This document shows, piece after piece, positions 1,122 through 19,603 of a stretch of DNA of 29,277 bases. The DNA comes from a candidate division WOR-3 bacterium. GTDB lineage: Bacteria > Hydrothermota > Tepidihabitantia > Tepidihabitantales > Tepidihabitantaceae. Every line of letters starts with the position of its first letter. The first letter of the stretch is position 1. The notes below the pieces were generated by a model. It made no database searches and was not told the DNA's origin. It worked only from the letters and a program-made list of their open reading frames with translations. The DNA lies in the NCBI GenBank assembly GCA_965648905.1, contig CBFGIT010000031.1, forward strand, positions 1 to 29,277. Reading direction: 5' to 3'. The translations under genes and the position numbers were made by a program.

Positions 1122-1424
1122 CTATTGTATCTTGCCTTCCTTCTTGAGTTCCAGTTTGACCTTTGCCCAGACCCCATGCTGCTTGTAAGCCTGTCGCAGC
1201 TCTTCGAGCGAGGGAAAGGAGATGCACTTCCCCTGGCAGAGGTTGGCGCAGGTCGAGCAACCTACTATGCAGTTCAGAGGACGTGCGACCTTCGGTCCAT
1301 CTTCAGTCCAGTCGTACACCTGCTTTCCGCAGTTCATGCACATGCCGCACTTGACGCAGTGGTCATGGTCAATGGTCGGGTGCCAGACGATTTCACCTCG
1401 CGGGATGCCGACAAGCCAGGGCAT
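1122..1424 (-). CDS. 4Fe-4S dicluster ferredoxin family protein
   Basis: CVKCGMCMNC and CIVGCSTCANLC motifs; AGGAGG at 1436-1431 supports ATG at 1424. Confidence 0.88.
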   Translation of the reverse strand: MPWLVGIPRGEIVWHPTIDHDHCVKCGMCMNCGKQVYDWTEDGPKVARPLNCIVGCSTCANLCQGKCISFPSLEELRQAYKQHGVWAKVKLELKKEGKIQ

Positions 1425-1451
1425 TATCAACCTCCTTTGCAGTTCGTGTTT

Positions 1452-1590
1452 CAGTCTTTCTTCGGATTGCCGTCCAGCGGCACCAGCAGCACCGTCTGGC
1501 GGCGCTGTGAATCTCCGCGGTGGCGACCGCCGCGGGCAGGTACTCCGAAGCCGGGGAGAGGTCGGTTGCTACGAGGATTCTGCGAAACAT
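1452..1590 (-). pseudogene. Universal stress protein remnant (internally deleted/frameshifted)
   Basis: RBS plus MFRRILVATDLSPASE closely matches the N-terminus of the intact USP (MFERILVATDLSDTSE). Similarity is then lost, and a shifted frame ends RRQTVLLVPLDGNPKKD*, like a USP C-terminal strand. Confidence 0.65.
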
Positions 1591-1611
1591 GGATTTCTCC
1601 TTTGCATGATT

Positions 1612-4600: not shown

Positions 4601-4734
4601 ACCATCGGGTAGGTGACTTTGGGCAGGTAGTCCACTTCAAGGGTCTGGAGGCTGAAGAACCCGATGACCGCGACCGCGACCGCGAGGACGCTGACCGCTA
4701 TTGGGCGCCTGATGGAAACGGACGAGAGCTTCAC
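1612..4734 (-). CDS. RND efflux permease (AcrB/AcrD/AcrF family)
   Basis: 1040 aa; N-terminal SIRRPIAV, LGVILDNSIVVLE (TM4) and RLRAILMTQLTTILGLVPLAL (TM11) signatures. Confidence 0.95.
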   Translation of the reverse strand: MKLSSVSIRRPIAVSVLAVAVAVIGFFSLQTLEVDYLPKVTYPMVKIHIWYRGATAEEIETTIAEPIERVMATVDNLDYLESSSIEGMYTLLVNFKYGVNIEDAYADVTTAMGRVARQLPTDMDPPVIIKADPSQLPVMEVTVSSDRHDLVWLRDWSQNWLTDRLNAVDGTAGVEAVGGLKREIRVLLDARRLAAYGLTPAAVAKALQEENREMFAGRVTVGAREIIARTAGEFGSLDEMAEVVVLRGPDGREVRVRDIATIEDSHEEARVITRFNGRACVKLNVLKQADANTVAVSKAVAARLAELEAEAPEGVSFNYVENQGEYVMAAINSVGSSAILAAILVIFIVYLFLGQWRPVVVMGTAMPLTLLASFLLMRLAGFSLNLFSLGGLVVALGVILDNSIVVLESITRQRKLSAPDFAVRGTSEVGSAIVASTVTFVAIFLPFVFIPGLAAILFKELVLVIAGIVLISLAVALTWTPFLTDRLLRSERHARSLPFMRAVENGISRATERYAALLGRLLARARWPVVIIAGLLLAVGLFFAGRIGSEFLPAVDDGRVMVKVRLPSGASVATTDSILSRLEAAVKDEPEIASIFAMAGGRVWGLATYEVANEGELDIQLVPRSRRRVTTRQFMDRIRPIVGKVPAPGGRIGVAQMKVKGIRQVGTQEVEVRVRGPEMSDIYAFARQVAATLDTVPGLTNVTLAVDMTKPEYRCRLDRTRAAALGVTVNEFAAALRAQVGGTVASRYRVGTDYYNIRVIVPESRLTSRTDLEGLVVKQRNGRPVYVRDVAQVVPSVGPVEIVRTDQVKEVVVGADRLGKSVGEATGRAAAAVAAMERTPGVEYVMGGQAQMMAENQRTMSLIIAFAALLAFVVLAIQFESLLLPLLILVGIPLSLTGTFAALALSGSALGSTVQIGMVVMMGAIMSQGVVLLSLAESHRRAGVPANEAVLRAAPVRLRAILMTQLTTILGLVPLALNLGEGGDMLKPMAIAVIGGLIYSLAVTLFFMPAAYSLVLGRKNRGAPQPAASVPAQPDAPAMD

Positions 4735-4737
4735 GCT

Positions 4738-5769
4738 CTAGTCCTTCTTCTCCGGAGCGCCCGCCTTGCCCGATTGGACGCGCACCGCCGCGCCGTCGCG
4801 AAGCCGTTCGTTGCCCGCGGTTATCACCGATTCGCCCGCGGTCACGCCGCCGAGCAGTTGCACCCGGCTGCCCGACTCGATGCCGGTCCTGACCTGGCGC
4901 TGCCGGGCAGTGTCACCGCTCACGACATATACCACCTGCTGGCCGTTGGGCGTGACGGTGACCGCGGCCACCGGCACGATGACCGCAGAGTCGGCCTGCG
5001 CGGTAGCGATGGACACCCGGACCATCATGCCGGCCCTGAGTTCGGGGAAGGGCGGCTGCGGCACGATTTCCACCATCCCGGTGCGGGTCAGTTCGTCGAG
5101 TCGCGGGTGAACTCGCTCCACCCGGCCGGAGAACTCCCGGCCGGGCCAGGCATCGGCGCGCAGCCTGACAACTGAGTTGCGGGTGACGCCGGAGATGCTC
5201 AGCTCGGGCACGGTTACGTCAATGCGGAACGACCCGGCACTTTGTACTTCGAAGAGTTTCTGGCGGGGGACGACCATGTCGCCGATGTCAGCGGAGCGCT
5301 GGGACACGACCCCGGTCATTGGCGCGATGAGCGGGGACTCCCGATACTCGGCGAGGGCGAAGCGGAGATTCTCCTCGGCCTCGGCCAGCAACTGTCCGCC
5401 GGTTGCGCGCAGTGATTCAACCGCCACGCGCGCGGCGTTGACGATGTCCTCGCGCACCAGCGGACTCACGTAGGCGAGCACCGCCCCTTCCTCGACCCGG
5501 TCACCCTCGCGGGCAAGGAGACGGCTGATTCTGCCCTCGGTCGGCGACAGCACGCCGGCGACGGTTGTCGGCCGGACCGTGCCGGGCAGTTCGATTTCCT
5601 GCCTGATTGTCCCCAGTTGGGCGACCGCGGTCTTGACCAGGGGCGGTTTGGGTCCGCCGGTCTCAGCGGCCTTGCGGCGGCAGGCCGTGTGAAGCAGGAC
5701 GGCCGCGACCAGGGCAAAGAGAAAAACATTCTTGACTCGGTGGGACATGCGGCTCAGGTATCGGGTCAT
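4738..5769 (-). CDS. RND periplasmic adaptor (membrane fusion protein)
   Basis: Lipoyl-like EGRISRLLAREGDRVEEG and IAPMTGVV motifs; C-terminal RQVRTG...GVTAGESVITAG; RBS AGGAGG. Confidence 0.93.
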   Translation of the reverse strand: MTRYLSRMSHRVKNVFLFALVAAVLLHTACRRKAAETGGPKPPLVKTAVAQLGTIRQEIELPGTVRPTTVAGVLSPTEGRISRLLAREGDRVEEGAVLAYVSPLVREDIVNAARVAVESLRATGGQLLAEAEENLRFALAEYRESPLIAPMTGVVSQRSADIGDMVVPRQKLFEVQSAGSFRIDVTVPELSISGVTRNSVVRLRADAWPGREFSGRVERVHPRLDELTRTGMVEIVPQPPFPELRAGMMVRVSIATAQADSAVIVPVAAVTVTPNGQQVVYVVSGDTARQRQVRTGIESGSRVQLLGGVTAGESVITAGNERLRDGAAVRVQSGKAGAPEKKD

Positions 5770-5784
5770 TGACAGACCTCCTGT

Positions 5785-7047
5785 CTAGAGCAGTCCGAGC
5801 AACGCCAGCAGCCGGGCGCGGGCGTTGTGATAACCTTCATAGAGCCCGGCCAGCGTCAGCTCGGTCTCAAGCAGGCTCTGCTGTATCTGAATGGCGTCGG
5901 TAGCGGAGCGGCGTCCGGCGGAGTACTCCAGGTCCGCGGTACGCAGGTTGGCGCGGGCCTGCTCGACCGCACGGCGCTGCACGGCGATGCGTTCCGGGTA
6001 CTCCTGAAGCGCGGCCAGCGCGCCGGCCACCTCGGCCTGAAGTCGCAGCTTCGCGTCTTCTTTCCGGAGTTGCGCGGCGCGCAGGGCGGAGTTGGCCGAA
6101 CTGAGACGGTTCCGGGCGGTGCCGCCGTCGAGCAGCGGAACCGCGGCCCGCACCCCGGCGTAGTAGCGGCCGTTCCTCTGCAAAGAGAAGCTGTCCGGCC
6201 CGAACTCCCATCCGTACCAGGCAGCCCCGTCAACGCTCGGCAGCAGCGCGGCCCGGGCCGAGGTGACGCTCGCACGGGCCTGCTCAACGTCGGCCGTGCG
6301 CTGTACCTGCTCAGGGCTTTCGTCAACCAGCCGGCGCGCATCTTCCGGCCCGGGCAGGGCCAGACCGGCGGTATCGGCGACCAACGAGTCCGCAGGCACA
6401 AGGATTGCGGAGTCTGACCGGCCGAGCAGCGCGACCAGACTGCGAGAAACGGCCTCGTACTGGTTGCGGGCGGCAATCAGGCGATTATCGAGGCCGGCCG
6501 CCTCGACCTCGAGCCGGCCCAAGTCGAGCGCCGATGCCCGGCCGGCGGCGTGGAGCAGCCGGGTCCGCTTCAGCCGGGCGGTCATGTTGTCGCGGCTGTG
6601 CTCGAGCACCGCGGTCTCCTGCCTGAGACCCTGGAGCCGGCGGTAGAGACGCTGAGCCTCAAAGCGCACCGCCATCGCCTCGGCCGAGAGCCCGGCCGAA
6701 TCCTGCTTGATGCGCGCCCGGGCCGAGGAGTACCGGGCAGCGGCTCGGCCGCCGTCGTAGAGCGGCTGGCGTACGCCGACCGTTGTTAGGAAATCGTGCG
6801 GCGAGTCGCCGATGAACGGCTTCTTGGCCTGGGGGATGATGTCGAGCCACGTGTATTCGCCGCTGATACTCAAATCGGGAATCCACTCGCCGCGCGCCGC
6901 ACGCAGCTCGGCCTGCGCACCGGCAAGGCGCGCCGACGCTGCCTGCAGGCGCAGGTTCTCGGTGGCGACTGCGGTCAGCACCTGGTCCAGGCTGATGACG
7001 GTCGAGTCGGCAGCGACCAGCGTGACGAGCAGGAGCAGCGCGGTCAT
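5785..7047 (-). CDS. TolC-family outer membrane efflux protein
   Basis: Signal peptide, two OEP repeats (QPLYDGG / VPLLDGG, AGRASALD / AGRRSATD), adjacent to MFP and RND. Confidence 0.92.
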   Translation of the reverse strand: MTALLLLVTLVAADSTVISLDQVLTAVATENLRLQAASARLAGAQAELRAARGEWIPDLSISGEYTWLDIIPQAKKPFIGDSPHDFLTTVGVRQPLYDGGRAAARYSSARARIKQDSAGLSAEAMAVRFEAQRLYRRLQGLRQETAVLEHSRDNMTARLKRTRLLHAAGRASALDLGRLEVEAAGLDNRLIAARNQYEAVSRSLVALLGRSDSAILVPADSLVADTAGLALPGPEDARRLVDESPEQVQRTADVEQARASVTSARAALLPSVDGAAWYGWEFGPDSFSLQRNGRYYAGVRAAVPLLDGGTARNRLSSANSALRAAQLRKEDAKLRLQAEVAGALAALQEYPERIAVQRRAVEQARANLRTADLEYSAGRRSATDAIQIQQSLLETELTLAGLYEGYHNARARLLALLGLL

Positions 7048-7811
7048 TCTTTGTTGGTGCAGTACAGGGCCGCGGAATAGGCGCGATTCACCGCGTCCAT
7101 CAGGCCCTTACCGGCGTCGGCGAGCGTGGCGTCCCGGTAATGCCGGGCCAGGACGAAATGGTCCACAGCCGGGGAGATGCCGCTCAACGCCCTCCGGTAG
7201 CACTGACACCGGCCGGCGTCCTTGGGATACGGGCATGGCCCGAGGAGCGCGCGGTTGCGGAGCTCCAGAACCCGAGAAACCAGCGAGTCGGCGCGGCCCG
7301 ACCCAGCCGAGTCCTTCGCCGCCGCGATGGCGTCCTTGGCGGTGCGGCGCAGGTGGTAGATCCGGTCAGCCGCATAGTCGAGTCCGTTCTCTTCATGCAT
7401 CCGGATGAACTCCGCGCAGCCTTTGCCGCACGCCTTGAATGAACCCGCGTGGTCGCCGGCGCGCAGCAGCGATTCCATCTGTCCCATGGCCTTGCCGATG
7501 CCCTCCAGCCGGTCCGCGAACCCGGCGTCGGACCCGTACTCGGCCGGCGGATTCTTCCCGTAGGTCGCGGCGACCTTCTTCCAGATGGCGCGGGCGCGAC
7601 TGAGGTGCTTCAGCGTGCTGTCGGTCAGCCTGGGCGTACCGATGGAGTCGAGTTGCTGGACCAGGGTGCAGTAGGCGCGGAGTTCCAGTCGCGCCGCGGT
7701 CACGGTGCTATCGAAACTCGAAAGCGGCGGCGGATTGGGCCCGGCCTGAGTCAGTCCGACCAGGCCGGCCAGCGCGACCGCCATCATCCCGAGGCGCGTC
7801 AGTTGTCTCAC
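7044..7811 (-). CDS. Secreted Cys-containing helical hypothetical protein
   Basis: N-terminal signal peptide; amphipathic helices with CGKGC, CPYP and CQC; 4-nt overlaps with both neighbours. Confidence 0.75.
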   Translation of the reverse strand: MRQLTRLGMMAVALAGLVGLTQAGPNPPPLSSFDSTVTAARLELRAYCTLVQQLDSIGTPRLTDSTLKHLSRARAIWKKVAATYGKNPPAEYGSDAGFADRLEGIGKAMGQMESLLRAGDHAGSFKACGKGCAEFIRMHEENGLDYAADRIYHLRRTAKDAIAAAKDSAGSGRADSLVSRVLELRNRALLGPCPYPKDAGRCQCYRRALSGISPAVDHFVLARHYRDATLADAGKGLMDAVNRAYSAALYCTNKE

Positions 7812-8050
7812 GCCTTTCCTCCGGCAAGCAGCTTCTTCAGTTCGTCCTTGGACGGGACCTTGCCCTGAGCAACGACCTTGCCGTCAATCACCAGCCCGGG
7901 CGTCATGAAGACGCCCATCGCGGCGAACTTCTTGAGGTCGGTGACGTGTTCGACTTCGGCCGCGATGTTCATCTCCGCGAGCGTGTCGCGCACGCGCTTC
8001 TCGAGTTCCTGACACCGGGCACAGCCGATTCCGAGTATCTGGACTTTCAT
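7808..8050 (-). CDS. Small redox-active disulfide protein (MTH895/ArsE-like thioredoxin), copy 2, intact
   Basis: MKVQILGIGCARC...FMTPGLVIDGKV; AAAGGAG RBS; clear paralogue of 874-1113. Confidence 0.92.
   Translation of the reverse strand: MKVQILGIGCARCQELEKRVRDTLAEMNIAAEVEHVTDLKKFAAMGVFMTPGLVIDGKVVAQGKVPSKDELKKLLAGGKA
7991..8046. repeat. 56-bp exact direct repeat, copy A (5' end of thioredoxin gene)
   Basis: cacgcgcttctcgagttcctgacaccgggcacagccgattccgagtatctggactt is identical to 9055-9110. Confidence 0.97.
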
Positions 8051-8074
8051 CTTGATCTCCTTTTCAGAATGGTA

Positions 8075-8998
8075 CTAGACATCAAACAGACGGATGAGGT
8101 ATTCAGGTCTACGTATCTCGTCAAGTGCTTTGGCGGCCTTACCCCGCGTGGCCACAAGCGGGAGTTTCCCTTTACCCGGAAGAGGTCGCCTACGAATGCG
8201 GAAGTGGGCTGCTGCAACCGCAGTACCCATGAGTTCGGCAGAGCACCTCTGCACGCCGTGACGTTGCCAATATGCGCTCGGATCCTCGTGGACCGCCGAC
8301 ACGGCGATGCGTGCCGACCCCCGCCAGAGGGCGCGCCATTTCTCAGTCAGCCGCCGCAGTTGGGCTGCGTCGGGTTCCACCGGGTGTTCTGAGTCATGCG
8401 GCAGCAAACGAGGTATGAGTCTGGATCGTTTCAGAACATCTTCGTATGGGCGCACACCGTACATGTCATAGCACGCGCAGAGCAGGGCTAGTCCGCTTGG
8501 GAGACGAACCAGCCGATGGCTGTCCGAGAAGTCGTCCTCGCAGGAGTACCAGACAGGGTTTTGCCGTGGGCCCGGGTTCTGTGGAGGCGGGAACACCTTT
8601 CTACCTAGTCCCTTGACTCCCTTGGCATCCCAAGCTACACAAAACTCGTCTCCCCTCCAATGCTCAGTTCCACGTGCGTCGACGCCAGCGATTATCAGCG
8701 GTTGTACGGGCCGTCCGCGCTTCGCCAGCATCGTGCACGCCCGCATACAGTCGTCGGAGTAGTCCGTGACAACGATCTTTGCCATTCGTGTTTCTGTGTC
8801 GAGGAGACCCAGATGCTCCGGATGACGGAAGTACCCGCCCGGCAGCACGACGCAATCCAGGCTGTCCCATCCGTGTTCCTTGATGTCGAGGGCTATCGCT
8901 AGCAGCAGGCCCGAGCGGTACTGATTCGTGGAAGCGGACTTGGCCTTCGACCCCACTACGCAGACGGTGACAATCCGTCCGTCGTTTCTTGTACTCAC
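8075..8998 (-). CDS. Hypothetical protein with carbon-nitrogen hydrolase (nitrilase)-like motifs
   Basis: DCVVLPGGYF, GRKVFP and LLCACYDMYG line up with the nitrilase P-E / R-K / C-Y-D blocks. GGAGGT RBS favours GTG at 8998 over ATG 9013. Looks less GC-rich than the flanks by eye. Confidence 0.6.
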   Translation of the reverse strand: MSTRNDGRIVTVCVVGSKAKSASTNQYRSGLLLAIALDIKEHGWDSLDCVVLPGGYFRHPEHLGLLDTETRMAKIVVTDYSDDCMRACTMLAKRGRPVQPLIIAGVDARGTEHWRGDEFCVAWDAKGVKGLGRKVFPPPQNPGPRQNPVWYSCEDDFSDSHRLVRLPSGLALLCACYDMYGVRPYEDVLKRSRLIPRLLPHDSEHPVEPDAAQLRRLTEKWRALWRGSARIAVSAVHEDPSAYWQRHGVQRCSAELMGTAVAAAHFRIRRRPLPGKGKLPLVATRGKAAKALDEIRRPEYLIRLFDV

Positions 8999-9054
8999 GC
9001 TGATACCTCCCATGGCCGGGATTTCGCGATCACGCTGCTACGCTACGACTCCAT

Positions 9055-9110
9055 CACGCGCTTCTCGAGTTCCTGACACCGGGCACAGCCGATTCCGAGT
9101 ATCTGGACTT
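9055..9110. repeat. 56-bp exact direct repeat, copy B
   Basis: Identical to 7991-8046; abuts the intron 3' end. Confidence 0.97.
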
Positions 9111-11003
9111 GTCGAGTAGAAATCATTTCTTACCTCCCCTGGGTCATAGATTCCCCTCACAGAACCGAACGTGACCATTTCGGTCATTCGGCTCTTCATG
9201 AACACTTCCGCTAAGGAGGGGGTAACGCCGATATATCTTCGGTCGGGGAAGCGGATGATACTCCAGCCAGCGCTTGAACCGCTGCCAGTCGTAGCTCCGA
9301 AGCTGGCTCCGCCGATTCAGCCACTTGTACGCCAGCCCAACCACGTGCCGGTAGAAGCTCTGCACGCTCCGTAGATTCCCGCCTATCCCATAGTAACGAT
9401 AGTATCCCGTGACTTTCGCCGCCAGCAGCGACCACCAGTCGGCAAGCTTCATCTGATTCCGTATGCTCCTGAGCCAGTCGTTCATCTGTCCCAGTGCCCG
9501 TCGTAGTCGCTTCCGCTCTGTCTTGCGCCCCAGCTTGAAGCCGCCCGTTCGCGTCTGTTCGCAGTAGTGCGTGAACCCTAAGAAGTCGAAGGTTGCCAGT
9601 CGCTTCGCTTGTCGCCTTGCCGCTGCCCATTGGTAGCGCCCGAACTCGATTACCCGGCTCTTGGTCTCAGCCAAACGCAGCCCGAACTTTCCCAGCCGTT
9701 CCGCGAGATTTCCCATGAAACGCCGGGCCTCTTGCCCACTCTGCACGCAGACCACAAAGTCGTCCGCATACCGCGTCAGGTGGGCATAGCCTCTCGTCTG
9801 CCGCTTGACCTTGCGCTCAAACCATAAGTCGAGTACATAGTGCAGGTAGATGTTTGCCAGCACCGGACTCAGTACGCTGCCTTGGGGTGTGCCCGCGGTC
9901 GTGGCACTCTTCCGACCTTCAGTCACTACGCCCGCCGTCAGAAATCGCGCTATCAGTCGTAGAAAGGCACTGTCGGTAATGCGCTGCTCTAAACAACGCA
10001 TCATCCATTCGTGATTCACCGTGTCGAAGAACCGCTCGATGTCCGCATCCACGACGTAGTTGACCGGTCGCGTCATGATTGTCCGGTCGAGCGCGTCTAA
10101 GGCATCGTGTGCCCCACGCCCTGACCGGAATCCGTAGGATACCTCCAGAAAGTCAACCGCAAAGACCGCCTCCAGTATCAGCTTGCAGGCCATCTGCACT
10201 ATCTTGTCCTCTACCGCCGGTATGCCCAATGGCCTTCGGTCGCCATTCGGCTTCGGGATGTATACCCGCCGGGGCGGTCGCGGACGATACTGCCGAGCCT
10301 TCAGCCGCCGGACCAAGTCCTTGAGATTGACCACCAGATTCGCTTCGTAGTCCTCAACCGTTACCGCATCTATGCCCGGGGCCTTGTTACGCTTCAGCTC
10401 CCCGAAGCACGCCCGTAGGAAGTCATCAGTAAGCAGGTGCATTAGTGCACAGAATCGGCTTTGAGGATTCTTGCTGGCCCTTAGAGTAAGGGACTTGAGT
10501 CTTGTTGAGAACCGTGCTCCGGTTCTGAGTCCGGCAGTTCTGTCCCTCAAGTCCCGTCGCATTCCTGTAGGCCCCTTCGCTCCACCCGCGTTAACGGGCT
10601 TCGTCGCTACTATGGGCCTATCCGACTCCCATAACGCCGTCTGGGCCGCCTTGTCTTTCCGGGACTTGGCCGCCCATACTCTGCTGAGAGCGTCATGGGT
10701 CTCCCGAGTTCCTGGCCTATCCGTATGATACCTCGCCACGGTCTCAGACCCCGCCAGTCTCGCCGCTCCTTGCCTGACGGTGCGGAGAGTATTGCCTGCG
10801 GCTTTATGAACAGCATCGGCAACTGGGATGACAGGAATTACGGGGCTCAATCCCTTCACTTGCGTTGTGGCTCGGTAACTCGTTTCCGCTGGCTTCATAG
10901 CTTCGGTTACCCTGACTATGCAGCGTTCACTATTGAGGTGGCTGCCAACCTTCCTCAAGCCGGACTCTCACCGGCTGGACAAACCAGACTTTTCTCGGCG
11001 CAC
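9111..11003 (-). mobile_element. Group II intron (IIB-like, probably bacterial class E), 1,893 nt, apparently complete
   Basis: 5' end GTGCG at 11003; domain V GAGCCGAATGACCGAAATGGTCACGTTCGGTTC (9194-9162); domain VI with bulged A at -7 (9117); 3' end ...CTCGAC at 9111; removal restores ATG AAA GTC CAG. Confidence 0.95.
9144..10562 (-). CDS. ltrA: Group II intron reverse transcriptase/maturase (no HNH endonuclease domain)
   Basis: KAPGID, RPLGIP, SYGFR, DADIERFFD, GTPQGSVLSPVLANIYLH, RYADD, FDFLGFTHYC, then the X domain. ATG 10562 follows the DIII-like segment; the start is uncertain (track gives 10958). Confidence 0.93.
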   Translation of the reverse strand: MRRDLRDRTAGLRTGARFSTRLKSLTLRASKNPQSRFCALMHLLTDDFLRACFGELKRNKAPGIDAVTVEDYEANLVVNLKDLVRRLKARQYRPRPPRRVYIPKPNGDRRPLGIPAVEDKIVQMACKLILEAVFAVDFLEVSYGFRSGRGAHDALDALDRTIMTRPVNYVVDADIERFFDTVNHEWMMRCLEQRITDSAFLRLIARFLTAGVVTEGRKSATTAGTPQGSVLSPVLANIYLHYVLDLWFERKVKRQTRGYAHLTRYADDFVVCVQSGQEARRFMGNLAERLGKFGLRLAETKSRVIEFGRYQWAAARRQAKRLATFDFLGFTHYCEQTRTGGFKLGRKTERKRLRRALGQMNDWLRSIRNQMKLADWWSLLAAKVTGYYRYYGIGGNLRSVQSFYRHVVGLAYKWLNRRSQLRSYDWQRFKRWLEYHPLPRPKIYRRYPLLSGSVHEEPNDRNGHVRFCEGNL

Positions 11004-11043
11004 TCATCGCATCCTCCTGCTTTGGGTTGATTCGCTTTCCATG

Positions 11044-11963: not shown

Positions 11964-13136
11964 CTAGGCAATTGCACCATAGAGCAGGCCGACGATGGTT
12001 GAGAGAACAACCACTAGTAGAATGTAGGTTGCCGCGCGGCGCAGGCCGATCATCCGGGTTATGACGATCATCGAGGGCAGGGACAAAGCCGGGCCGGCAA
12101 GGAGTAGTGTGAGGGCCGGGCCCTTTCCCATCCCTGACCCGATGAGGCCCTGCAGAATCGGGATTTCTGTCAGGGTGGCAAAGTACATCAATGCGCCCGA
12201 GACCGAGGCAAACAGGTTGGCCCAGAGAGAGTTGCCGCCGAGCAGACCCGCGATTACGTGGTTCGGAATGATGCCGGCGTCGAGGCCCGGCCTCCCGAGC
12301 AGGAAGCCGGCCACGAACACGCCGCCGAACAATAGGGGCATTATCTGCTTGGCAAAGGTCCACGTGGATGCGACCCAGGCCTTACGTTCTTCGCCGTTGA
12401 ACCAGCGCCATACCATGAGCGCGAGGGCGAGGAGCGACGCACCGGCGAGATACCAGTGAACCGAGTAGACGGCATTGTAGAAGCCGATTGGCTCTTTGGG
12501 CTTGCCCCAGGTCAGGAAGATGAGCGCGAGAATCATTGAGACGAAGTAAAGGATGTTCTGCCAGAGCCGGCGTCCGCTCGCAGCGGCTTCAAGGTTGAAC
12601 CCGGCCTGCGACTCGGCGCGCTGCTTCTCCGACCGTATGAAGATGAACGCCATTGCCAGACCGATGATGACCGAGAAAATGACCGCGCCGATGGCGCGGG
12701 CGAGGCCCAGTTCGAGCCCGAGCACGCGGCCAGTCATCAGGATTGCGAGCACGTTGATGGCAGGGCCGGAGTAAAGGAAGGTCGTGGCGACGCCAAGCCC
12801 GGCGCCGGCCATGTAGATGCCCATGAACATCGGGAGCACGGTGCAGGAGCAGACCGCGAGGATCGCGCCCGAGACTGAGGCTATCGAGTAGGCGAGTACT
12901 TTGTTGGACTGCGGGCCGAAATACTTGAGGATGGCTTCCTTGGAGATGAAGTTCTGGATGGCGCCGGCGATAAAGAAGGCGGGCACGAGGCAAAGGAGAA
13001 CATGGAGCCGGGCGTACTCCTGCAGCATCTGGAACCCTTCGAGCAGGGCACCCTGGACCCGGCCCGGCCCAAGCGGCACGAAGTAGAAGAACAGGAAGAC
13101 GCCGAGGATGATGAGGAGTTTGGTGCGTTCTTTCAT
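11964..13136 (-). CDS. arsP: ArsP-like permease (DUF318)
   Basis: LAVCSCTVLPMF, FLYSGPAIN, MYFATLTEIPI and LLAGPALSLPSM motifs; multiple TM segments. Confidence 0.88.
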   Translation of the reverse strand: MKERTKLLIILGVFLFFYFVPLGPGRVQGALLEGFQMLQEYARLHVLLCLVPAFFIAGAIQNFISKEAILKYFGPQSNKVLAYSIASVSGAILAVCSCTVLPMFMGIYMAGAGLGVATTFLYSGPAINVLAILMTGRVLGLELGLARAIGAVIFSVIIGLAMAFIFIRSEKQRAESQAGFNLEAAASGRRLWQNILYFVSMILALIFLTWGKPKEPIGFYNAVYSVHWYLAGASLLALALMVWRWFNGEERKAWVASTWTFAKQIMPLLFGGVFVAGFLLGRPGLDAGIIPNHVIAGLLGGNSLWANLFASVSGALMYFATLTEIPILQGLIGSGMGKGPALTLLLAGPALSLPSMIVITRMIGLRRAATYILLVVVLSTIVGLLYGAIA

Positions 13137-13139
13137 CAG

Positions 13140-13700
13140 CTACTCCCAGCCGAACTCTCTGAATTTCGCCACGATGGAGTCACGCGGGTACACGCCGATG
13201 TGGCGAAAGAGCTCCTTGCCGTCCGGATCGTAGAATATCTGCGTGGGGATGACTTGGATGCGGGCCTGCATGGTCTTCTCCCGGTCCTGGTAGACGTTGA
13301 TGATGCGGACGTCTACTCGGTCCTTGTACTCAGCCATCAGCGGGGTGAGGATTTTCTCCATCTCCATGCAGGGAAGGCAGTTGGTGGAACCATAGTCCCA
13401 CATCCGTGGCAAGGCCTTGGGTTTGGGCGGCGGCTCCGGCTTGGGTTCCGGTTTCGGCTCTGTGTTGGCTGGCGGCTTTGGCTCGGGCCTGGGTTCGGTC
13501 TTCGGCGGGGCCGAGTCTGGAGCAGTCGCTGCAGAGGTGGTCTCGGGTACAGGAAGTGTCTCGCAGACTTCGTCCGGGGTGGCAGGTGTTGTCTCCGGTT
13601 TCGTGCTGGTGGTTTGCACGTCAGGCTTCGGGCCGCCGCAACCCGGCGCGTAGGTCAGGGTCAATGCTGCCATAAGAACCAGCAGGAGCAGTTTCTTCAC
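13140..13700 (-). CDS. Thioredoxin-family lipoprotein with Pro/Thr-rich linker
   Basis: GTG start at 13700 after GGAGG; signal peptide ending APGC (lipobox-like); PEPKP repeats; DYGSTNCLPC and IPTQIF thioredoxin fold. Confidence 0.85.
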   Translation of the reverse strand: MKKLLLLVLMAALTLTYAPGCGGPKPDVQTTSTKPETTPATPDEVCETLPVPETTSAATAPDSAPPKTEPRPEPKPPANTEPKPEPKPEPPPKPKALPRMWDYGSTNCLPCMEMEKILTPLMAEYKDRVDVRIINVYQDREKTMQARIQVIPTQIFYDPDGKELFRHIGVYPRDSIVAKFREFGWE

Positions 13701-13716
13701 ACTCAGATCCTCCGTT

Positions 13717-14418
13717 CTAGCGCTTGAATATCTCGTACAGGAAGTACACGGCCACGAGCAGGAGCAACACACCCGAGGCCTTCTTGAGAACAACCGACAG
13801 TTTCTTTAGCCCTTTCGAGTTCACCATCGCTTCGGCAATGCCCATCGAGCTGCCCGCGACCAGCACCAGCACCGAGTGGCCGAGCGCGTAGGTGAACAGC
13901 AACAACCCGCCGTAGACTACGTTGCCCTTCGACGCAACGTAAGAAAGGATGACCGCGAGTATCGGCATGGCGCAGGGCGTGGCGATGACGCCGGTCAGTG
14001 CGCCCAGGAGGAATGCGCCGACGATACCGCCGACCTTTGGTGCGAAGCCGCGCGGCATCGGGATTTCGAAGTTGGGAAAGAGGAGTATCTGGCCGCCCAT
14101 GACCAGGCAGACGACGATGATGAGTATGGGCCAGAACTTCGACGTCGTGCCGAAGAGCGTGCCGGCGAGCGACGCAACCATACCAAGCGCAGTAAACGAC
14201 GCAGCGATGCCGAGGAAGAGGAACAGAGCCAGCAGCAGAGCATAGCCCTTGGAACGGCCGGTCGCATAGCCACCGACGAAGCCAATGGCCAGGGGTATTG
14301 ACGCAAGCACGCAGGGGTTGAGCGCGGTGACGAGACCGCCGAGAAAGACGACCGGCACGGCGAGCAGGGGCTGCGAGGTAATCAGCTTCTCGGCATTGGC
14401 AAGCAGGTTGGTGAGCAT
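13717..14418 (-). CDS. ccdA: CcdA/DsbD-family thiol-disulfide transporter
   Basis: LNPCVLASIP and ATPCAMPIL motifs with about six TM helices. Confidence 0.9.
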   Translation of the reverse strand: MLTNLLANAEKLITSQPLLAVPVVFLGGLVTALNPCVLASIPLAIGFVGGYATGRSKGYALLLALFLFLGIAASFTALGMVASLAGTLFGTTSKFWPILIIVVCLVMGGQILLFPNFEIPMPRGFAPKVGGIVGAFLLGALTGVIATPCAMPILAVILSYVASKGNVVYGGLLLFTYALGHSVLVLVAGSSMGIAEAMVNSKGLKKLSVVLKKASGVLLLLVAVYFLYEIFKR

Positions 14419-14427
14419 CAACTTCTT

Positions 14428-15264
14428 CTACTCCTTTGGCTTGGCGGCCGAGACGCCGATGCTGCGGACCGAGACTGCGGCCGACCGTAGTTCGTCTTCT
14501 GTCATCCCTGACTCGCGTACCAGCGCCTGCAAAGTGGGGTCGCTGGTCGCCGCCTCAACCGGGAAGCGGCTTTCAACCTCAACCTTGACATCACCGAATC
14601 CGGCGGCGGCAATCATCCCCCAATAGTCCTGCTTCAGGCTCGCGCCCGAGATGCAGCCAACGTAGGCGGCAGCGGAGTCGAGCAGGGCTTTCGGGAGCGG
14701 CGCGGTAAGCACGATGTCCGAAACCATTAGCCGTCCGCCCGGCTTCAGTACGCGGAACGCCTCACGGAAGACCTGAGGCTTATTCGGGGAAAGGTTGATG
14801 ACGCAGTTGGAGATGACCACATCGACCGAGTTGTCGGCGACCGGCAGGTGCTCGATCTCACCCAGCCGAAACTCGACATTTGCGAAGCCAGCCCTGGCCG
14901 CATTGGTGCGCGCCTTGTCGACCATCTCCGGCGTCATGTCTACACCGATGACGCGGCCTGCCGGGCCGACCTTGCGGGCGGCGAGAAAGCAGTCGAATCC
15001 GGCCCCGGAGCCAAGGTCGAGCATGACATCGCCGGGGCGCAGCGCTGCCAGTGCGGTCGGGTTGCCGCAGCCAAGGCCAAGGTTAGCGCCGTCCGGGACA
15101 GATGCCATTTCCTCGTCGCTATAGCCGAAGCTGCGGCTTGTTTCACGGGCGGCGCTCGTCCCGCAGCATGCGCTTGAACCTCCGCAGCACGAGCCGCTCC
15201 CGCGCGCGACCTTGGCGTAGCCTTCTCTTACCGACTTGCGGAGTGCATTTTCGTCGTTCTTCAT
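14428..15264 (-). CDS. arsM: Arsenite S-adenosylmethionine methyltransferase
   Basis: N-terminal CC..CC, NLGLGCGNP, LDLGSGAGFDCF, ISNCVINL and GCISGA; TGATG overlap with arsR. Confidence 0.95.
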   Translation of the reverse strand: MKNDENALRKSVREGYAKVARGSGSCCGGSSACCGTSAARETSRSFGYSDEEMASVPDGANLGLGCGNPTALAALRPGDVMLDLGSGAGFDCFLAARKVGPAGRVIGVDMTPEMVDKARTNAARAGFANVEFRLGEIEHLPVADNSVDVVISNCVINLSPNKPQVFREAFRVLKPGGRLMVSDIVLTAPLPKALLDSAAAYVGCISGASLKQDYWGMIAAAGFGDVKVEVESRFPVEAATSDPTLQALVRESGMTEDELRSAAVSVRSIGVSAAKPKE

Positions 15265-15614
15265 CAGTCCTCACTTCTCGACCGGGCACAGCATGCGAGG
15301 GGCGACGCCGGGCCGACCGGAACACCCCTTCCTGGGTCTAGAGACATACGGCGGGCAACTCTAACCAGCGCAGCCACCCGGCGGTCGGCAATCTGATGGA
15401 AGACGCGGCGGCCGACCTTGCGCGACCGGATGATACCGGCGTTCTCAAGCACCGCCAGGTGGCGTGAGACGACAGTCCGCTCCTGGCGGAACGCCGGGGT
15501 AATCTCACAGACACATCGCTCGCCCTCAAGGAGCAGGATGACGATGTTCAGCCGCACCCGGTGACCGAGGGCGGCGAAGATGTCTTCGGCCGGGGGGCGA
15601 CGTGATCGTAGCAT
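15264..15614 (-). CDS. arsR: ArsR/SmtB-family metalloregulator
   Basis: FAALGHRVRLNI...GERCVCEI...VSRHLAVLENAGII; C-terminal CC pair. ATG 15614 lies just downstream of the promoter (track start 15632 is inside it). Confidence 0.92.
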   Translation of the reverse strand: MLRSRRPPAEDIFAALGHRVRLNIVILLLEGERCVCEITPAFRQERTVVSRHLAVLENAGIIRSRKVGRRVFHQIADRRVAALVRVARRMSLDPGRGVPVGPASPLACCARSRSED

Positions 15615-15651
15615 ATGTGCAAAAACATACACATATAGACGCTGAAGTCAA
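15612..15651 (-). promoter_or_regulatory. arsR promoter with overlapping inverted-repeat operator
   Basis: TTGACT(15651-15646)-N16-TATGTT(15629-15624); inverted repeat ATATGTG-N10-CACATAT (15613-15636) covers the -10. Confidence 0.8.
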
Positions 15652-15670
15652 GGTAAAGTTGCCTCGCCGG

Positions 15671-15689
15671 GACGGCGCGGCGCGCCGTC
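15671..15689. other. GC-rich hairpin between operons (possible terminator/processing stem)
   Basis: GACGGCGCG-G-CGCGCCGTC perfect inverted repeat just after the stop of 15705-16322; no clear U-tract. Confidence 0.35.
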
Positions 15690-15704
15690 AACGTTGGTCC
15701 CCGG

Positions 15705-16322
15705 CTAGGTCCGCTTCAGCAGTGCGTCGAGCCGGGCGCCGATTTCGGCCTCGGTCATCTCACGAGCGGTGCGGAAAGCCTCTTTGCCGGTCGGGTCGAG
15801 GAACACGAACGTCGGGACGATTGTGATGCGGTAGCGGCGGGCCGTTGTCTCGTCGACGTTGATGTCGACGGTGCGGAATGCGGCGCGGCCGACGTATGAA
15901 GCAGCGACCTTCGCCAGCACCTTGTCCATAGCCAGGCAGCTCTCGCAACGGAAGCCCAGGAACCGGAGCAGGGTCGGCTTGGGCCGGGGCAGCCAGTACA
16001 GCAGCTCACCCAGGCTGCGGATGAGGCGGGCGGCATCGGCACCCCGGCCTGCGGCCAGCAGGGTCTCGGCGTCGGCGATGCGGCCGGAGATGAGCACGCC
16101 GCCTTCGTTCCAGCCGGCGGGGAGACCGGCTGTGTCGTCCGCGAGGCCGGCAACGGTGCCCGACCAGAGCCGGCCGGCGTTGTCGACCAACGCCAGCGCG
16201 GAGTCGGTAGCACCGGCGGCCAGGCTGGAATCGGCCCGGCGGACGCACTCGGCCACCGGTTGGAGCCGGGCGATGAGCGAGTCTTGGGGCAGCGCGAGCG
16301 CGAGTACGAGAATCACACCCAT
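15705..16322 (-). CDS. Exported thioredoxin-domain protein with N-terminal helical domain
   Basis: Hydrophobic N-terminus; C-terminal thioredoxin fold FLGFRCESC...IVPTFVFLDPTGKE. Confidence 0.8.
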   Translation of the reverse strand: MGVILVLALALPQDSLIARLQPVAECVRRADSSLAAGATDSALALVDNAGRLWSGTVAGLADDTAGLPAGWNEGGVLISGRIADAETLLAAGRGADAARLIRSLGELLYWLPRPKPTLLRFLGFRCESCLAMDKVLAKVAASYVGRAAFRTVDINVDETTARRYRITIVPTFVFLDPTGKEAFRTAREMTEAEIGARLDALLKRT

Positions 16323-16331
16323 GGTCGGTAC

Positions 16332-17333
16332 TTAGAGACGCAGGCGCGCGGCTTGGAGGACCTGCCGAGTGGCGAAGTCCTGGAGTATGACATAGACGCC
16401 GATGTTGTTCTTGTCTACGATGTGGAACGGTGTGTGGCGTGCGCTGAGCGTGTCGGGAATCGCGAGTGAGCGCTGGAACGTGCGGGTCTCACCGGCGTTG
16501 AGGCTTAAGGTGTCGGTGAAGACGAGGTCGAGAACGATGTTGCGAAAGACGCTGGTATCACCGGGGCTGTTCTCGTAGGACACCGGCCCGAGTTCGTACA
16601 GCCCGACCCCAAGCCCGACACCGGGGCCAATGCCATCGACCGCGTCAAGTTGCACCGTGGCGGTCACAGAATCGGCACCGGAACGGACCGCCTGCAGCCC
16701 GACCAGTACCGGACTGGAGATACGCAGGAGCGAGTCGACCAGCCGGCGGTAGTCACCCATGGTCTGCCGCTCGGTGCGGCCATCGAGGTAGAGCCAGCCG
16801 CCGAGGCGGAATGTCGGCGCATAGTAAAGACGGCGGGACTCTGCGGCCGGGCAGATGAACGGCTCCCAGTAGTAGGCGAGCGTGTCGTCGGAGGCGTGGT
16901 ACTCAACGTGCACGACGCTATCGCCTAAGCTGTCCACCAGCGCATAGAGCGCCATGCGCTCGGGGCGGGAGCAGACGCAGACCGTAGAAATCATCTCGGC
17001 CGCGACCCGGCGTCGGGCACTGCGGAGCACGAGGCTGACGCTGGTGGTTTCGGCCCGGGTGACAGTGCACGAGCTTGAGTCCGACAGGAACCCGGGGCTT
17101 GCGGCCCTGACCAGATAGTTCCCGGGCGTGAGGTAAGTCAGCACGAATGCGCCGAGCGAATCGGTGGTCACCGTCGCGCTGGCCGGGACGGTGGATACCG
17201 CCGCACCGGCAACCGGGGTACCGGATTCCGTCTTCACGGTCCCGACCAGTGTCCCGCTCGTCGTGTCCGCGGGACAGCCGCCCAGGGAAAGCAGAGCGAG
17301 CAGCAGGAGCGCGCCGAGTGGCAGGCGGAGCAT
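16332..17333 (-). CDS. Lipoprotein: carboxypeptidase-regulatory-like domain plus Omp28-like domain
   Basis: Lipobox LGGC; GTPVAGAAV...TTDSLGAF...LTPGNYLVRAASPGF; then AEMISTVCVC...VEYH...RRLYY...VILQD...VLQA, resembling Omp28. Confidence 0.7.
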   Translation of the reverse strand: MLRLPLGALLLLALLSLGGCPADTTSGTLVGTVKTESGTPVAGAAVSTVPASATVTTDSLGAFVLTYLTPGNYLVRAASPGFLSDSSSCTVTRAETTSVSLVLRSARRRVAAEMISTVCVCSRPERMALYALVDSLGDSVVHVEYHASDDTLAYYWEPFICPAAESRRLYYAPTFRLGGWLYLDGRTERQTMGDYRRLVDSLLRISSPVLVGLQAVRSGADSVTATVQLDAVDGIGPGVGLGVGLYELGPVSYENSPGDTSVFRNIVLDLVFTDTLSLNAGETRTFQRSLAIPDTLSARHTPFHIVDKNNIGVYVILQDFATRQVLQAARLRL

Positions 17334-17341
17334 GTTGCCTC

Positions 17342-18733
17342 CTATATCTTCAGGTTCAGCTCCAGGCCGGGCAGATGCGCGGTGTAGGCTGCGGCCGGGT
17401 CCCGGTGGCGCACGAGCGAGTACTTGAGCTGGACCGAATTCTGCAACGTGAGGCGGCGCACGAGGAGCAGCGAGCCGATGACCTCAGTTGCGTCGAGTCG
17501 CTCGTCGGCCTGCAGCGTTGCCGGGTCGTCGGTACGGGTATTGCGGCGCCATTCGCCGTCGACACCCAGGCTGGTTCCATACCACGGCTCGCAGCGGATG
17601 CTCATGGTCACGACCCGGAAGTCGCCGGGGTACTTCCCGCCCGTGAACTCGGTACCGACCATCGGCACCAGCTCACGCAGGAACTTGACGTAGCCCGACG
17701 CACTCGCGGTCACGCGGCCGAAGGCGATGTTCCGACGGGCGGCAAAGAACCGTAAGCCTTGGCGGTTGCGGCCGACGGTCAGGGCGCGGTACAGAGGCAG
17801 GAAGTTCGGCTCAAAGCGCAGGTAGTGCATCTGCAGGTCGAGGTTCTCGCGGTCGCCGAGGCGAAGCCCTGTGCTCATGCCGGCGTCGGACAGCTCGGGG
17901 TCGGCCAGGGCGAGGTTGTCGTCGCGCATACTGTACGCGACCTCGGCGACGACGGCAACCGGTTCGAGCACGGGCAGACTCAGGTCGAAGCTTGCAACGT
18001 CGCTGCGCAGCGGCGGATTTGCCGCCTGACCGACCGAGCCTTTGTCGTCGGTGACGCGCAGGCCGGTGATACCAAAGCACGCCGTCGAAGTCAGCCACGG
18101 CACCAGAGGTTCGTAGCGCAGGCGCACGCCACCCAAGTACTGGGCGTAGGACCGGCCGGCGCTGGGCAGCGCAGTGCGGGCCAAGAGCAGGGTCGCGTGC
18201 AGCGGCCCCGGAGCGAGAACGAGCCGGGTGCCTTCCAGCCGGTAGTCGGCCGAGAAGTCCTCAAGGCTGTTGCCACGCAGACCACCGACCGCAACGGCGC
18301 AGCAACTGGAGCCGGAACCAAGCGGGTTGTCGTCCAGGTCCCAGCGCATCAGGGTCAATGGCGTGAAACTCGCGTCGAAGGCGCCGGCGGTGATGTCGGC
18401 AATGCCCTGCTCGAACCGCGCCCACCACCAGCCGCCGGCCAGCCGGCCCGACACCAGGTCAGGCGGGAACAGGGTCGCATCCGCGTCCTCGTTCGACACC
18501 CGCAGCGCCGTGCCCAATTTGAGTCGTTCGGTGGCGCGAAAGGTAGCACCGAGCTCCAGGCGCGAGCGGAAGTCGAAACCGGTCTTCAGCCGCTCGCCGC
18601 TGATGCCATCGATGGAGTCGCCCGGCGCCCCGATCAGCCGAAACCGCATCCGCGCCAGCGCACTTACGTCGAGTCGGTCGCCGACCGCGAACGCCCCGGC
18701 CAGAGAGCAGAGCAGTGCCAGCGCCGTCAACAA
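17342..18733 (-). CDS. Predicted outer-membrane beta-barrel protein with SSCC motif
   Basis: Signal-like LLTALALLCSLAGAFA, alternating hydrophobic strands, C-terminal LELNLKI. TTG 18733 follows GGGAG; start uncertain (track gives 18865). Confidence 0.6.
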   Translation of the reverse strand: MLTALALLCSLAGAFAVGDRLDVSALARMRFRLIGAPGDSIDGISGERLKTGFDFRSRLELGATFRATERLKLGTALRVSNEDADATLFPPDLVSGRLAGGWWWARFEQGIADITAGAFDASFTPLTLMRWDLDDNPLGSGSSCCAVAVGGLRGNSLEDFSADYRLEGTRLVLAPGPLHATLLLARTALPSAGRSYAQYLGGVRLRYEPLVPWLTSTACFGITGLRVTDDKGSVGQAANPPLRSDVASFDLSLPVLEPVAVVAEVAYSMRDDNLALADPELSDAGMSTGLRLGDRENLDLQMHYLRFEPNFLPLYRALTVGRNRQGLRFFAARRNIAFGRVTASASGYVKFLRELVPMVGTEFTGGKYPGDFRVVTMSIRCEPWYGTSLGVDGEWRRNTRTDDPATLQADERLDATEVIGSLLLVRRLTLQNSVQLKYSLVRHRDPAAAYTAHLPGLELNLKI

Positions 18734-18852
18734 CCGCGACTCCCGGATACCAGTGGTCGCGAACCGCGCGACCCAGCGGATGCGGGGTGCGGTTGAACCG
18801 GTTGGGAAGTCGACGGTGGCGTCAGGCGATGCCGGCGCGTTTTCGGACAGAC

Positions 18853-18892
18853 CATTTGTGCACAAGGATACACATGTCGGTCAGACGGTCAA
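18853..18892 (-). promoter_or_regulatory. Promoter with second copy of the putative ArsR operator
   Basis: TTGACC(18892-18887)-N16-TATCCT(18870-18865); ACATGTGTATCCTTGTGCACAAATG matches the arsR site ATATGTGTATGTTTTTGCACATATG at 20/25 positions, in the same register relative to the -35. Confidence 0.75.
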
Positions 18893-18920: not shown

Positions 18921-19541
18921 CTATCTTGCGCCCAGCTCGGCTCGCGCGCTGTCCAGATTTTCCCGTACCAGGTCACGCAGACTGTCGAGTTCCTCTTCGG
19001 TTTCGACCGAGTCCATCTCGGCGAGCAGAGCGAGTGCCTCGGCAACGTAGCGGTGGAACGGGGCAAGCTCACTTTCGGCCCCGGGGCCGAGTCGTTCCTG
19101 CAGCAGCTCGGCCTTCTCCTGGAGTTCTTCGACGCGGGCAACCGCTGCCTCGGCAAAGTTGGGCAACCTCTCCGGCGTCAGATGTCGGTCAAGCGGGTCT
19201 GGTCTTGACGCCAGTCCGATGACCGCGGCGAGGGCGGCAAGCGTCACGGCTGAGCCGAGCACGAGCGCGGCCAGGGGCCGACCACGCGCCTTGTGCTGCT
19301 GTCGGATGAGCAGTACACCAACCACGATGCCCGGTATGCCGAGCAGCCCGAGCCAGACCGAGAGGCGTTCAAGGTCCGGGCCGGTGCCCGGCATCGTGGG
19401 TGGCGGTGGTGGCGGCCGATTCGGCGACTGGGTGTTGGCGTGAATTGTCAGCCGTTCGGTCTTCTCCAGGCGGGTTCTGCACTCTCGACAGAACCTGACC
19501 TTTGCGGGATTCTCCGCGCCACATGCTGGACAAAAAGGCAT
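18921..19541 (-). CDS. Zinc-ribbon domain membrane protein
   Basis: MPFCPACGAENPAKVRFCRECRTRL, poly-Pro linker, two TM helices, acidic helical tail. Confidence 0.8.
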   Translation of the reverse strand: MPFCPACGAENPAKVRFCRECRTRLEKTERLTIHANTQSPNRPPPPPPTMPGTGPDLERLSVWLGLLGIPGIVVGVLLIRQQHKARGRPLAALVLGSAVTLAALAAVIGLASRPDPLDRHLTPERLPNFAEAAVARVEELQEKAELLQERLGPGAESELAPFHRYVAEALALLAEMDSVETEEELDSLRDLVRENLDSARAELGAR

Positions 19542-19575: not shown

Positions 19576-19603
19576 AGAATAGCGACCTGAGGCCGGCAGT
19601 CAA
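19576..19603 (-). promoter_or_regulatory. Sigma70-type promoter for the zinc-ribbon gene
   Basis: TTGACT-N16-TATTCT. Confidence 0.55.

Follow-up and report, generated by a model that had tools for sequence, protein, structure and literature searches.

The 29,277-nt contig CBFGIT010000031.1 of a candidate division WOR-3 bacterium (hereafter the window; contig C31 of a 3.01-Mb genome, 99.6% complete) carries an arsenic resistance (ars) operon headed by the repressor gene arsR and, adjacent to it, an operon for a predicted outer-membrane beta-barrel, a predicted lipoprotein, and a thioredoxin (Table 1). A similar 25-nt site covers the -10 element of both promoters, and from this sequence evidence the barrel, lipoprotein, and thioredoxin genes are likely to be co-regulated by ArsR. 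Judged by its sequences, the barrel represents an unannotated family with a near-invariant cysteine pair in a loop, serviced by redoxins. Tentatively, and with a confidence slightly short of even, we propose that it is an ArsR-co-regulated outer-membrane channel with a loop 3 cysteine pair that is kept reduced by CcdA and thioredoxin, and that it would capture trivalent arsenicals and pass them out.

The reverse complements of the two sites (15612-15636 at arsR, 18853-18877 at the barrel operon) are identical at 20 of 25 positions, and under each of them a -10 hexamer lies 16 nt past a TTGAC -35 element. This confirms what the first-pass annotation of this DNA had described, including the equal distance from TTGAC. 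The genome-wide motif scan proposed there identified the two sites as reciprocal best matches (next best 18/25), and the exact core TGTGYA-N6-TRCACA occurs at two places in the genome, i.e. at these two sites. For comparison, 476 TTGAC-N17-TANNNT sites genome-wide were scored against the arsR site. The values are 25 for the site itself, 20 for the second site, and 14 or less for the rest. When the -10 element and the ATG are disregarded, 13 of 16 positions are identical. The upstream sequences of the two further full ArsR genes in the genome are unlike the shared site. Between 15000 and 20000 there are three promoter-like sites, versus 0.3 +/- 0.7 in shuffled sequences; the third TTGAC promoter-like site (19576-19603, minus strand), ahead of a zinc-ribbon membrane gene (18921-19541), lacks the palindrome.

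The likeness of the two promoters is restricted to the site and the -35 element and excludes spacer and flanks; the spacer after TTGAC matches poorly (6/15, counting TTGAC itself). The earlier description of a repeated palindromic site holds for the sequence match, whereas as a palindrome the second copy is weaker (12/24 self-complementary positions) than the arsR site (16/24). The weaker palindrome, the lack of conservation in relatives, and an additional arsR promoter in the sister genome G182, at the position matching the second site (gene order inferred from contig-end overlaps), are compatible with the view that the second site has no function and was left over from a promoter duplication, or matches by chance, and that the barrel genes are outside ArsR control. 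We regard this as very improbable, because similarity that is confined to site and -35 element, and does not extend to spacer or flanks, is what selection would give, and because the second site matches the window's arsR site (20/25) better than the arsR2 site of the sister genome does (14/24).

The second operator is peculiar to the window genome and was probably kept after a rearrangement. It probably served as promoter for another arsR copy that once lay upstream, and was retained when that gene was lost. The present arsR appears to be leaderless, with its ATG at 15614 within the palindrome, and the geometry is identical in the related loci L013 and L025. Two more specific histories were rejected. 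A recent duplication of the entire promoter does not agree with a local alignment that spans 23 nt only. For an origin of the barrel leader from a decayed arsR, the summed score was equalled by 51 of 500 shuffles and the DNA scores were unremarkable; among comparisons of the leader with ten ArsRs, the best single protein scores, for two ArsRs, were equalled by 3 and 7 of 500 shuffles.

To place the module in its genomic context, 91 barrel loci were collected, 80 of them by means of a cysteine-free search pattern, and barrels that are more than 90% identical were merged, yielding 76 distinct loci. In a quick tree, 15 of these form one clade (WOR-3) with the window barrel (16 tree rows). Within 6 kb of these 15 barrels, genes for thioredoxin (14 loci), CcdA (13), the lipoprotein (11), ArsR (10), ArsP (10), Acr3 (5), and an ArsC-like protein (1) are found. 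In eight of the 15 loci arsR and, downstream of it, the barrel gene belong to a single run of genes on one strand; the barrel gene is directly behind arsR in L018 and L035. Contig overlaps suggest a ninth case in the sister genome G182, where the order arsR'-arsM-truncated ccdA-barrel-lipoprotein-trx-arsR2-ccdA-trx-arsP was deduced from a collapsed repeat. The three Acr3 proteins that were scanned, from clade or sister loci (L015, L020, and L050), score above the TIGR00832 cut-off. In L031, L033, and L034 the module is oriented away from the ccdA/arsP genes, and a Fur-family gene comes after it. In L020, hgcA and hgcB (8923-10343, both above the NCBIfam cut-off) lie 3.5 kb downstream, behind acr3 in the gene run that includes the barrel. 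Seven loci with a redoxin-fused barrel (L066, L071, L079, L087, L088, L090, and L092) have a divergent ArsR-family gene upstream, whose product mostly lacks the CxC motif and has a C-terminal CxxxC; where tested, the palindrome was not repeated at the barrel promoter.

Co-regulation by ArsR is likely because the site match is unique and because the module of the relatives is found within or beside arsR-ccdA-trx-arsP(-acr3) operons, and the earlier proposal of an ArsR-controlled module is upheld at this strength. Binding of ArsR to the second site is very likely, and induction of the barrel operon by arsenic is probable. The expected co-occurrence with ars genes is observed inside the WOR-3 clade and is largely absent outside it, where seven of ten well-flanked loci lack such markers. 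The best reading is that the module was recruited into ars operons within WOR-3.

Relatives of the barrel begin at 18733 or 18730, which is its probable start as well, rather than 18865 as in the list of open reading frames. No Pfam or NCBIfam family was matched above cut-off by the window protein. A profile search retrieved 111 relatives, and the 73 near-full-length ones were scanned for domains; in these and in the window protein, the barrel part has no Pfam family above cut-off, and 45 of the 73 have an N-terminal AhpC-TSA/Redoxin domain. A structural model built from a 19-row alignment (pLDDT 77) has 20 long strands, mostly with alternating long and short links. In fold searches the best matches were the OprD/Occ, AlgE, and MOMP porins (Z 17.5-19.4, rmsd 4.0-4.3 A over 309-331 residues), with many unrelated barrels close behind (Z 12-18) and no close solved relative. 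The model and the fold matches bear out the earlier identification as a barrel. The SSCC motif noted there corresponds to C144-C145, which the model places in the 42-residue link following strand 5, predicted by barrel topology to be extracellular loop 3; of what structure prediction had been expected to clarify, the fold is supported, while the pair falls into a region with pLDDT below 50. In classical porins loop 3 is bent inward, into the lumen, and by analogy it is somewhat probable that it is so here.

Both cysteine columns are invariant in an 80-row alignment, from which fragments and the cysteine-free P0034 were left out. The pair is present in 74 of the 76 distinct motif segments, the other two being broken copies. 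It sits in a glycine-rich loop and its spacing varies (CxC 43, CxxC 28, and CC 3 of the distinct segments). The barrel gene is found in 12 of 272 genomes of the phylum; a broader profile of the barrel part returned the same 12 among the matches listed, besides 120 weaker matches, and a scan of genome contigs returned the sister genome alone.

The most constant partner of the barrel is a redoxin. A thiol oxidoreductase is fused to it in 26 of the 76 distinct loci, a redoxin gene is adjacent in 16, and a thioredoxin gene is nearby in 15, together 57 of 76; of the remaining 19 loci, 18 have less than 650 nt of upstream DNA. Since the redoxin fusion is family-wide, the barrel cysteine pair appears to be the thioredoxin target. 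In five loci of other clades (L038, 5733-7643; L041; L042; L047; L050) the gene after the barrel encodes a multidomain fusion that combines DUF1573 (CxC) and two CxxC domains of the glutaredoxin type with a CcdA-resembling membrane domain that has two cysteines. The likeness of this C-terminus of the long DUF1573 partner to CcdA has a pairwise E value of 0.043 and no Pfam match.

The two soluble partners in the window also carry conserved cysteines, i.e. the CVC and CESC motifs of the first-pass annotation, which are C119-x-C121 of the lipoprotein and C126-x-x-C129 of the thioredoxin. Residues C20, C119, and C121 of the lipoprotein are invariant in 12 homologues, and the CxC is invariant in 19 as well. 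In its model (pLDDT 88.5) the CxC opens the first helix of a thioredoxin fold, which according to the model is followed by an Ig-like domain, as in Omp28/HBP35-like proteins. The top Foldseek match is HBP35 (5y1a, E 1.8e-8, TM 0.49-0.51, 16% identity), and the Atlas groups the region with Omp28 clusters (0.92). The Pfam scan gave no PF11551 match, and when the lipoprotein profile was run against PDB sequences, only the N-terminal domain was matched. The thioredoxin CxxC is invariant in 12 homologues, all of which have a hydrophobic N-terminal stretch. Models and family searches agree with the earlier labels "Omp28-like" and "thioredoxin". A predicted complex of barrel and lipoprotein scored 0.01.

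The mechanism that we favour would operate as follows. ArsR would repress the barrel-lipoprotein-thioredoxin genes together with arsR-arsM-ccdA-arsP via the two sites, and would be released by an arsenical. CcdA would feed electrons to the periplasmic thioredoxins, as established for the DsbD family (PMC8238504), and thioredoxin would keep the loop 3 cysteine pair reduced. ArsM would make trivalent arsenicals, which ArsP or Acr3 would export into the periplasm, and the reduced dithiol of the barrel would bind them and pass them out across the outer membrane. The electron flow from CcdA via thioredoxin to the barrel is quite probable, and the electron supply by CcdA suggested earlier is supported by the presence of CcdA in 13 of 15 and thioredoxin in 14 of 15 clade loci and by the redoxin counts given above. 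With ArsM and ArsP/Acr3 placing trivalent arsenicals in the periplasm, capture and passage across the outer membrane would be the simplest use of the barrel in this lineage, and the variable cysteine spacing in a glycine-rich loop fits a dithiol for soft metal(loid)s. We give arsenicals as substrate and export as direction rather less than an even chance. The first-pass annotation had proposed an envelope module for binding, passing, or reducing arsenicals or other thiophilic metals; the control by ArsR and the link to CcdA and thioredoxin are supported, and arsenicals are a candidate substrate.

Several observations weigh against this mechanism. A second copy of the own arsR palindrome ahead of the barrel gene was found at none of 17 related loci (a test that is weak for L110, L079, and L087, for which the best palindrome picked was not the promoter one). 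The low pLDDT means that the position of the cysteine loop is not fixed by the model, and the homologue P0034 is cysteine-free throughout. The lipoprotein gene is missing from four of the 15 clade loci. In the window's own subclade, the barrel-trx pair of L027/G222 adjoins nifS/nifU, with no ars gene within 7.5 kb upstream and 10 kb downstream. The ars-linked barrels are a single clade in the quick tree, and their loci are not independent. Among the ten loci outside the clade with at least 4 kb on both flanks, one (L050) has Acr3, CcdA, thioredoxin, and ArsE, two have a divergent ArsR as the only ars marker, and seven have no ArsR, ArsP, Acr3, or ArsC within 6 kb. Concerning the regulator, the window ArsR has Cys34, Cys36, Cys108, and Cys109. 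The type 1 As(III) site of R773 ArsR consists of Cys32, Cys34, and Cys37 (PMC11868830); the equivalents of the first two are Cys34 and Cys36, and position 39 is not a cysteine. Cys80 and Cys82 of ArArsR (PMC11868830) are also lacking.

Without the third R773 cysteine and the ArArsR pair, the inducer is not fixed. Type 2 repressors (AfArsR/SpArsR) have vicinal cysteines near the C-terminus and a third one for As(III); the window ArsR has Cys108-Cys109, beyond which there is no further cysteine. By analogy, the two-cysteine sites would fit MAs(III), as stated for SpArsR (PMC11868830). Another soft ligand, i.e. Hg, Cu, Sb, Se, or sulfane sulfur, could be handled by the channel and sensed by the ArsR-family repressor, with the arsenic genes co-housed in the operon. 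Membership of the ArsR family leaves room for this, with only the general model NF033788 above cut-off; the permease also scores, below cut-off, on the SO_0444 (Cu/Zn) and SaoE models; and the hgcAB genes of L020, the Fur-family genes of L031, L033, and L034, and the mostly CxC-free divergent ArsRs at fused barrels point in the same direction. We consider this improbable, as arsM, above cut-off, directly follows this arsR, genes for Acr3 and for an ArsC-like protein turn up again among the clade loci, and the CxC corresponds to the two cysteines of R773 ArsR that are reported to be sufficient for arsenic binding (bioRxiv 10.1101/2022.10.17.512643).

The main rival of arsenical export is a general envelope thiol-redox module, in which the barrel would be a redoxin-serviced conduit or a redox-gated pore that reduces surface proteins or repairs envelope thiols. 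ArsR would switch it on since arsenic harms thiols, and arsenicals would not pass. This agrees with the redoxin being the constant partner throughout the family (57/76), whereas ars genes hardly occur outside a single clade, and with the HBP35-like thioredoxin fold of the lipoprotein; the DsbD-thioredoxin-DUF3570-DUF4266(CxC) clusters offer a published parallel (PMC8238504). In contrast, the variability between CC, CxC, and CxxC in a glycine-rich loop would suit a chelating dithiol more than a fixed redox site, and the barrel gene is rare (12/272 phylum genomes) compared to the DUF6029 barrel (42 of 44 genomes of the family). We regard the thiol-redox module as doubtful, yet worth serious consideration.

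Some relatives may contain selenocysteine. In one barrel cluster, four of five members stop exactly ahead of the first cysteine, whereas the fifth continues through CC, which suggests a UGA-encoded selenocysteine form. Two downstream halves are on contigs with lengths equal to those of two contigs of shortened members, and SelA is above cut-off in 41 of 44 genomes of the family. The barrel relatives P0015, P0121-P0125, P0010, and P0012 are broken in two precisely where the first cysteine of the loop would be. Counting against a selenocysteine form, no TGA was found at the cysteine position in the barrel loci scanned, frameshifted copies apart. For L055, L077, and L083 the possibility was rejected, the stops near the motif being out-of-frame artefacts or broken copies. 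Selenoproteome reviews report MtrB/PioB-type and TonB-dependent selenoproteins as well as DUF1573 (PMC13188914, PMC9312934); this barrel is not among the selenoproteins in the parts of these reviews that were covered.

Several components of the locus have precedents. Castillo and Saier described CcdA/thioredoxin genes and ArsE-type genes in ars operons, saw no extracytoplasmic target, and, ArsC being a cytoplasmic enzyme, thought it unlikely that electrons flow across the membrane (PMC2963123). Those operons share arsR, arsP, ccdA, thioredoxin, and MTH895/ArsE-type genes with the window; the sections of that paper used here name no outer-membrane barrel or thioredoxin-fold lipoprotein for them, whereas the window offers exported cysteine proteins as a candidate target. 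The arsR5-arsP-arsE-DGC operon of Pseudodesulfovibrio mercurii ND132 is up-regulated by arsenic (bioRxiv 10.1101/2022.10.17.512643). It shares ArsR, ArsP, PF13192 thioredoxin-like, and DGC genes with the window and, as described there, consists of these four genes only, unlike the window, which also has barrel, lipoprotein, CcdA, and ArsM. The nearest published architecture is that of the flavin-using DsbD-thioredoxin-DUF3570-DUF4266-ApbE clusters, for which the function is open (Meheust et al. 2021, PMC8238504). Both have a DsbD/CcdA-type carrier, an exported thioredoxin, a secreted CxC protein, and a partner of ~420 aa, but the reactive group in the window is a cysteine pair. No homology of the barrel to DUF3570 was detected, PF12094 having no match in this genome; the [ST]GA[ST] flavinylation motif is present in just 8 of 80 barrel rows, and no ApbE is among the 24 window proteins scanned.

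OprD/Occ, AlgE, and Campylobacter MOMP, the best structural matches of the barrel, share at most 13% identity with it in the listed rows, and the OprD/AlgE-type sequence family is unmatched by the window barrel and the 73 homologues. These porins have 18 strands; the 20 predicted strands, the conserved cysteine loop, and the redoxin partner set the window barrel apart. DUF6029 (PF19494) barrels are similar in size, in having an upstream redoxin (in this genome) and a cysteine pair, and are the third Atlas feature match (0.95), but their CxxxxC lies near the C-terminus. No homology was detected here either (profile comparison probabilities of 0.5% and 5%, no PF19494 match). The genome has its own DUF6029-like barrel with C-terminal CxxxxC and a redoxin elsewhere (contig C1, 118681-120729, plus strand). 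The lipoprotein has its fold in common with HBP35/Omp28 of Porphyromonas gingivalis, and differs by its CxC and an additional N-terminal carboxypeptidase-regulatory-like domain. Literature searches for this gene combination found no description of the barrel in the texts covered; supplements, which were outside their scope, could list such genes.

Table 1. Features of the operator sites, the barrel operon, and the ars genes in the window
Feature	Coordinates	Strand	Remarks
Second ArsR-type palindrome	18853-18877	-	covers -10 (18865-18870) of barrel operon promoter; -35 at 18887-18892
Leader, ~120 nt	18734-18855	-	between second site and probable barrel start; first codon ATG where a leaderless arsR would begin
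Predicted 20-stranded outer-membrane beta-barrel, 463 aa	17342-18733	-	C144-C145 (18299-18304) in 42-residue third loop
Predicted lipoprotein	16332-17333	-	carboxypeptidase-regulatory-like domain and HBP35/Omp28-like thioredoxin-fold/Ig region
Thioredoxin	15705-16322	-	hydrophobic N-terminus (likely exported), helical N-domain, C126-x-x-C129
arsR promoter palindrome (9-6-9)	15612-15636	-	covers -10 (15624-15629) and start codon; -35 at 15646-15651
ArsR/SmtB-family repressor, 116 aa	15264-15614	-	NF033788 79.9 bits, cut-off 55
Arsenite methyltransferase ArsM	14428-15264	-	PRK11873 361.4 bits, cut-off 263
CcdA/DsbD-type transmembrane electron carrier	13717-14421	-	PF02683 75.9 bits, cut-off 27.1
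Second thioredoxin	13140-13793	-	limits of open reading frame; true start probably further in
ArsP_1-family permease	11964-13136	-	PF03773 247.8 bits
MTH895/ArsE-family thioredoxin-like protein	7808-8050	-	TIGR00412 above cut-off

The order on the minus strand is second site, leader, barrel, lipoprotein, thioredoxin, 90 nt containing the arsR site, arsR, arsM, ccdA, thioredoxin, and arsP. The intergenic gaps in the barrel-lipoprotein-thioredoxin run are 8 and 9 nt. The downstream operon has two properties of an ArsR-regulated ars operon, i.e. an ArsR/SmtB repressor gene whose promoter is covered by a palindrome and, with ArsM, a bona fide arsenic determinant. Downstream of arsP follow usp, a group II intron, arsE-like genes, an RND cassette, and a DGC gene; a second MTH895/ArsE-type copy is at 874-1113, followed by the DGC-domain gene at 473-871. 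The intron (9111-11004, minus strand), with an intact reverse transcriptase reading frame (9144-10958), sits after the fourth base of a truncated arsE-like copy, and the joined exons would yield ~23 codons that match the start of the gene at 7808-8050. A 312-aa reading frame at 8075-9013 (minus strand) has a lower GC content and no Pfam or NCBIfam match. Between the two arsE-like copies (1122-8050, minus strand) are an RND-MFP-TolC cassette, a ferredoxin gene, and a gene for an uncharacterized 255-aa exported protein; the sister genome has arsP-arsE-DGC without these. A second arsenic cluster of the same genome (contig C53, ~4600-9900, minus strand) starts with arsR and has genes for a thioredoxin-like lipoprotein and an ABC transporter further along. 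The genes behind its arsR resemble arsD and arsA.

That ars operons can contain genes for CcdA, thioredoxin, and ArsE-type proteins is known already; what is new, as far as the cited work covers it, is a cysteine-loop barrel with a lipoprotein in that setting. Two points have been open, namely how arsenicals that are pumped into the periplasm exit a two-membrane cell, and, as stated in PMC2963123, why CcdA and exported thioredoxins are encoded in the ars operons of anaerobes. For the second, the locus offers a candidate target of CcdA and thioredoxin, i.e. the barrel, whose family lacks annotation and has two almost invariant cysteines. The sequences suggest that it may be an undescribed thiol-lined channel that handles arsenic at the cell surface. 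That it is a new kind of arsenic resistance component, a 20-stranded pore with a constriction-loop dithiol that captures trivalent arsenicals released by ArsP/Acr3 into the periplasm and is reset by CcdA and thioredoxin, is less likely than not; in some relatives of that pore, a selenol-thiol may replace the dithiol. If true, a thiol-lined arsenical pore would explain the transmembrane electron carrier in ars operons despite a cytoplasmic ArsC. Even without arsenic as a substrate, the barrels would constitute a widespread family of redoxin-coupled outer-membrane channels that has no Pfam model and may include selenocysteine-containing members.

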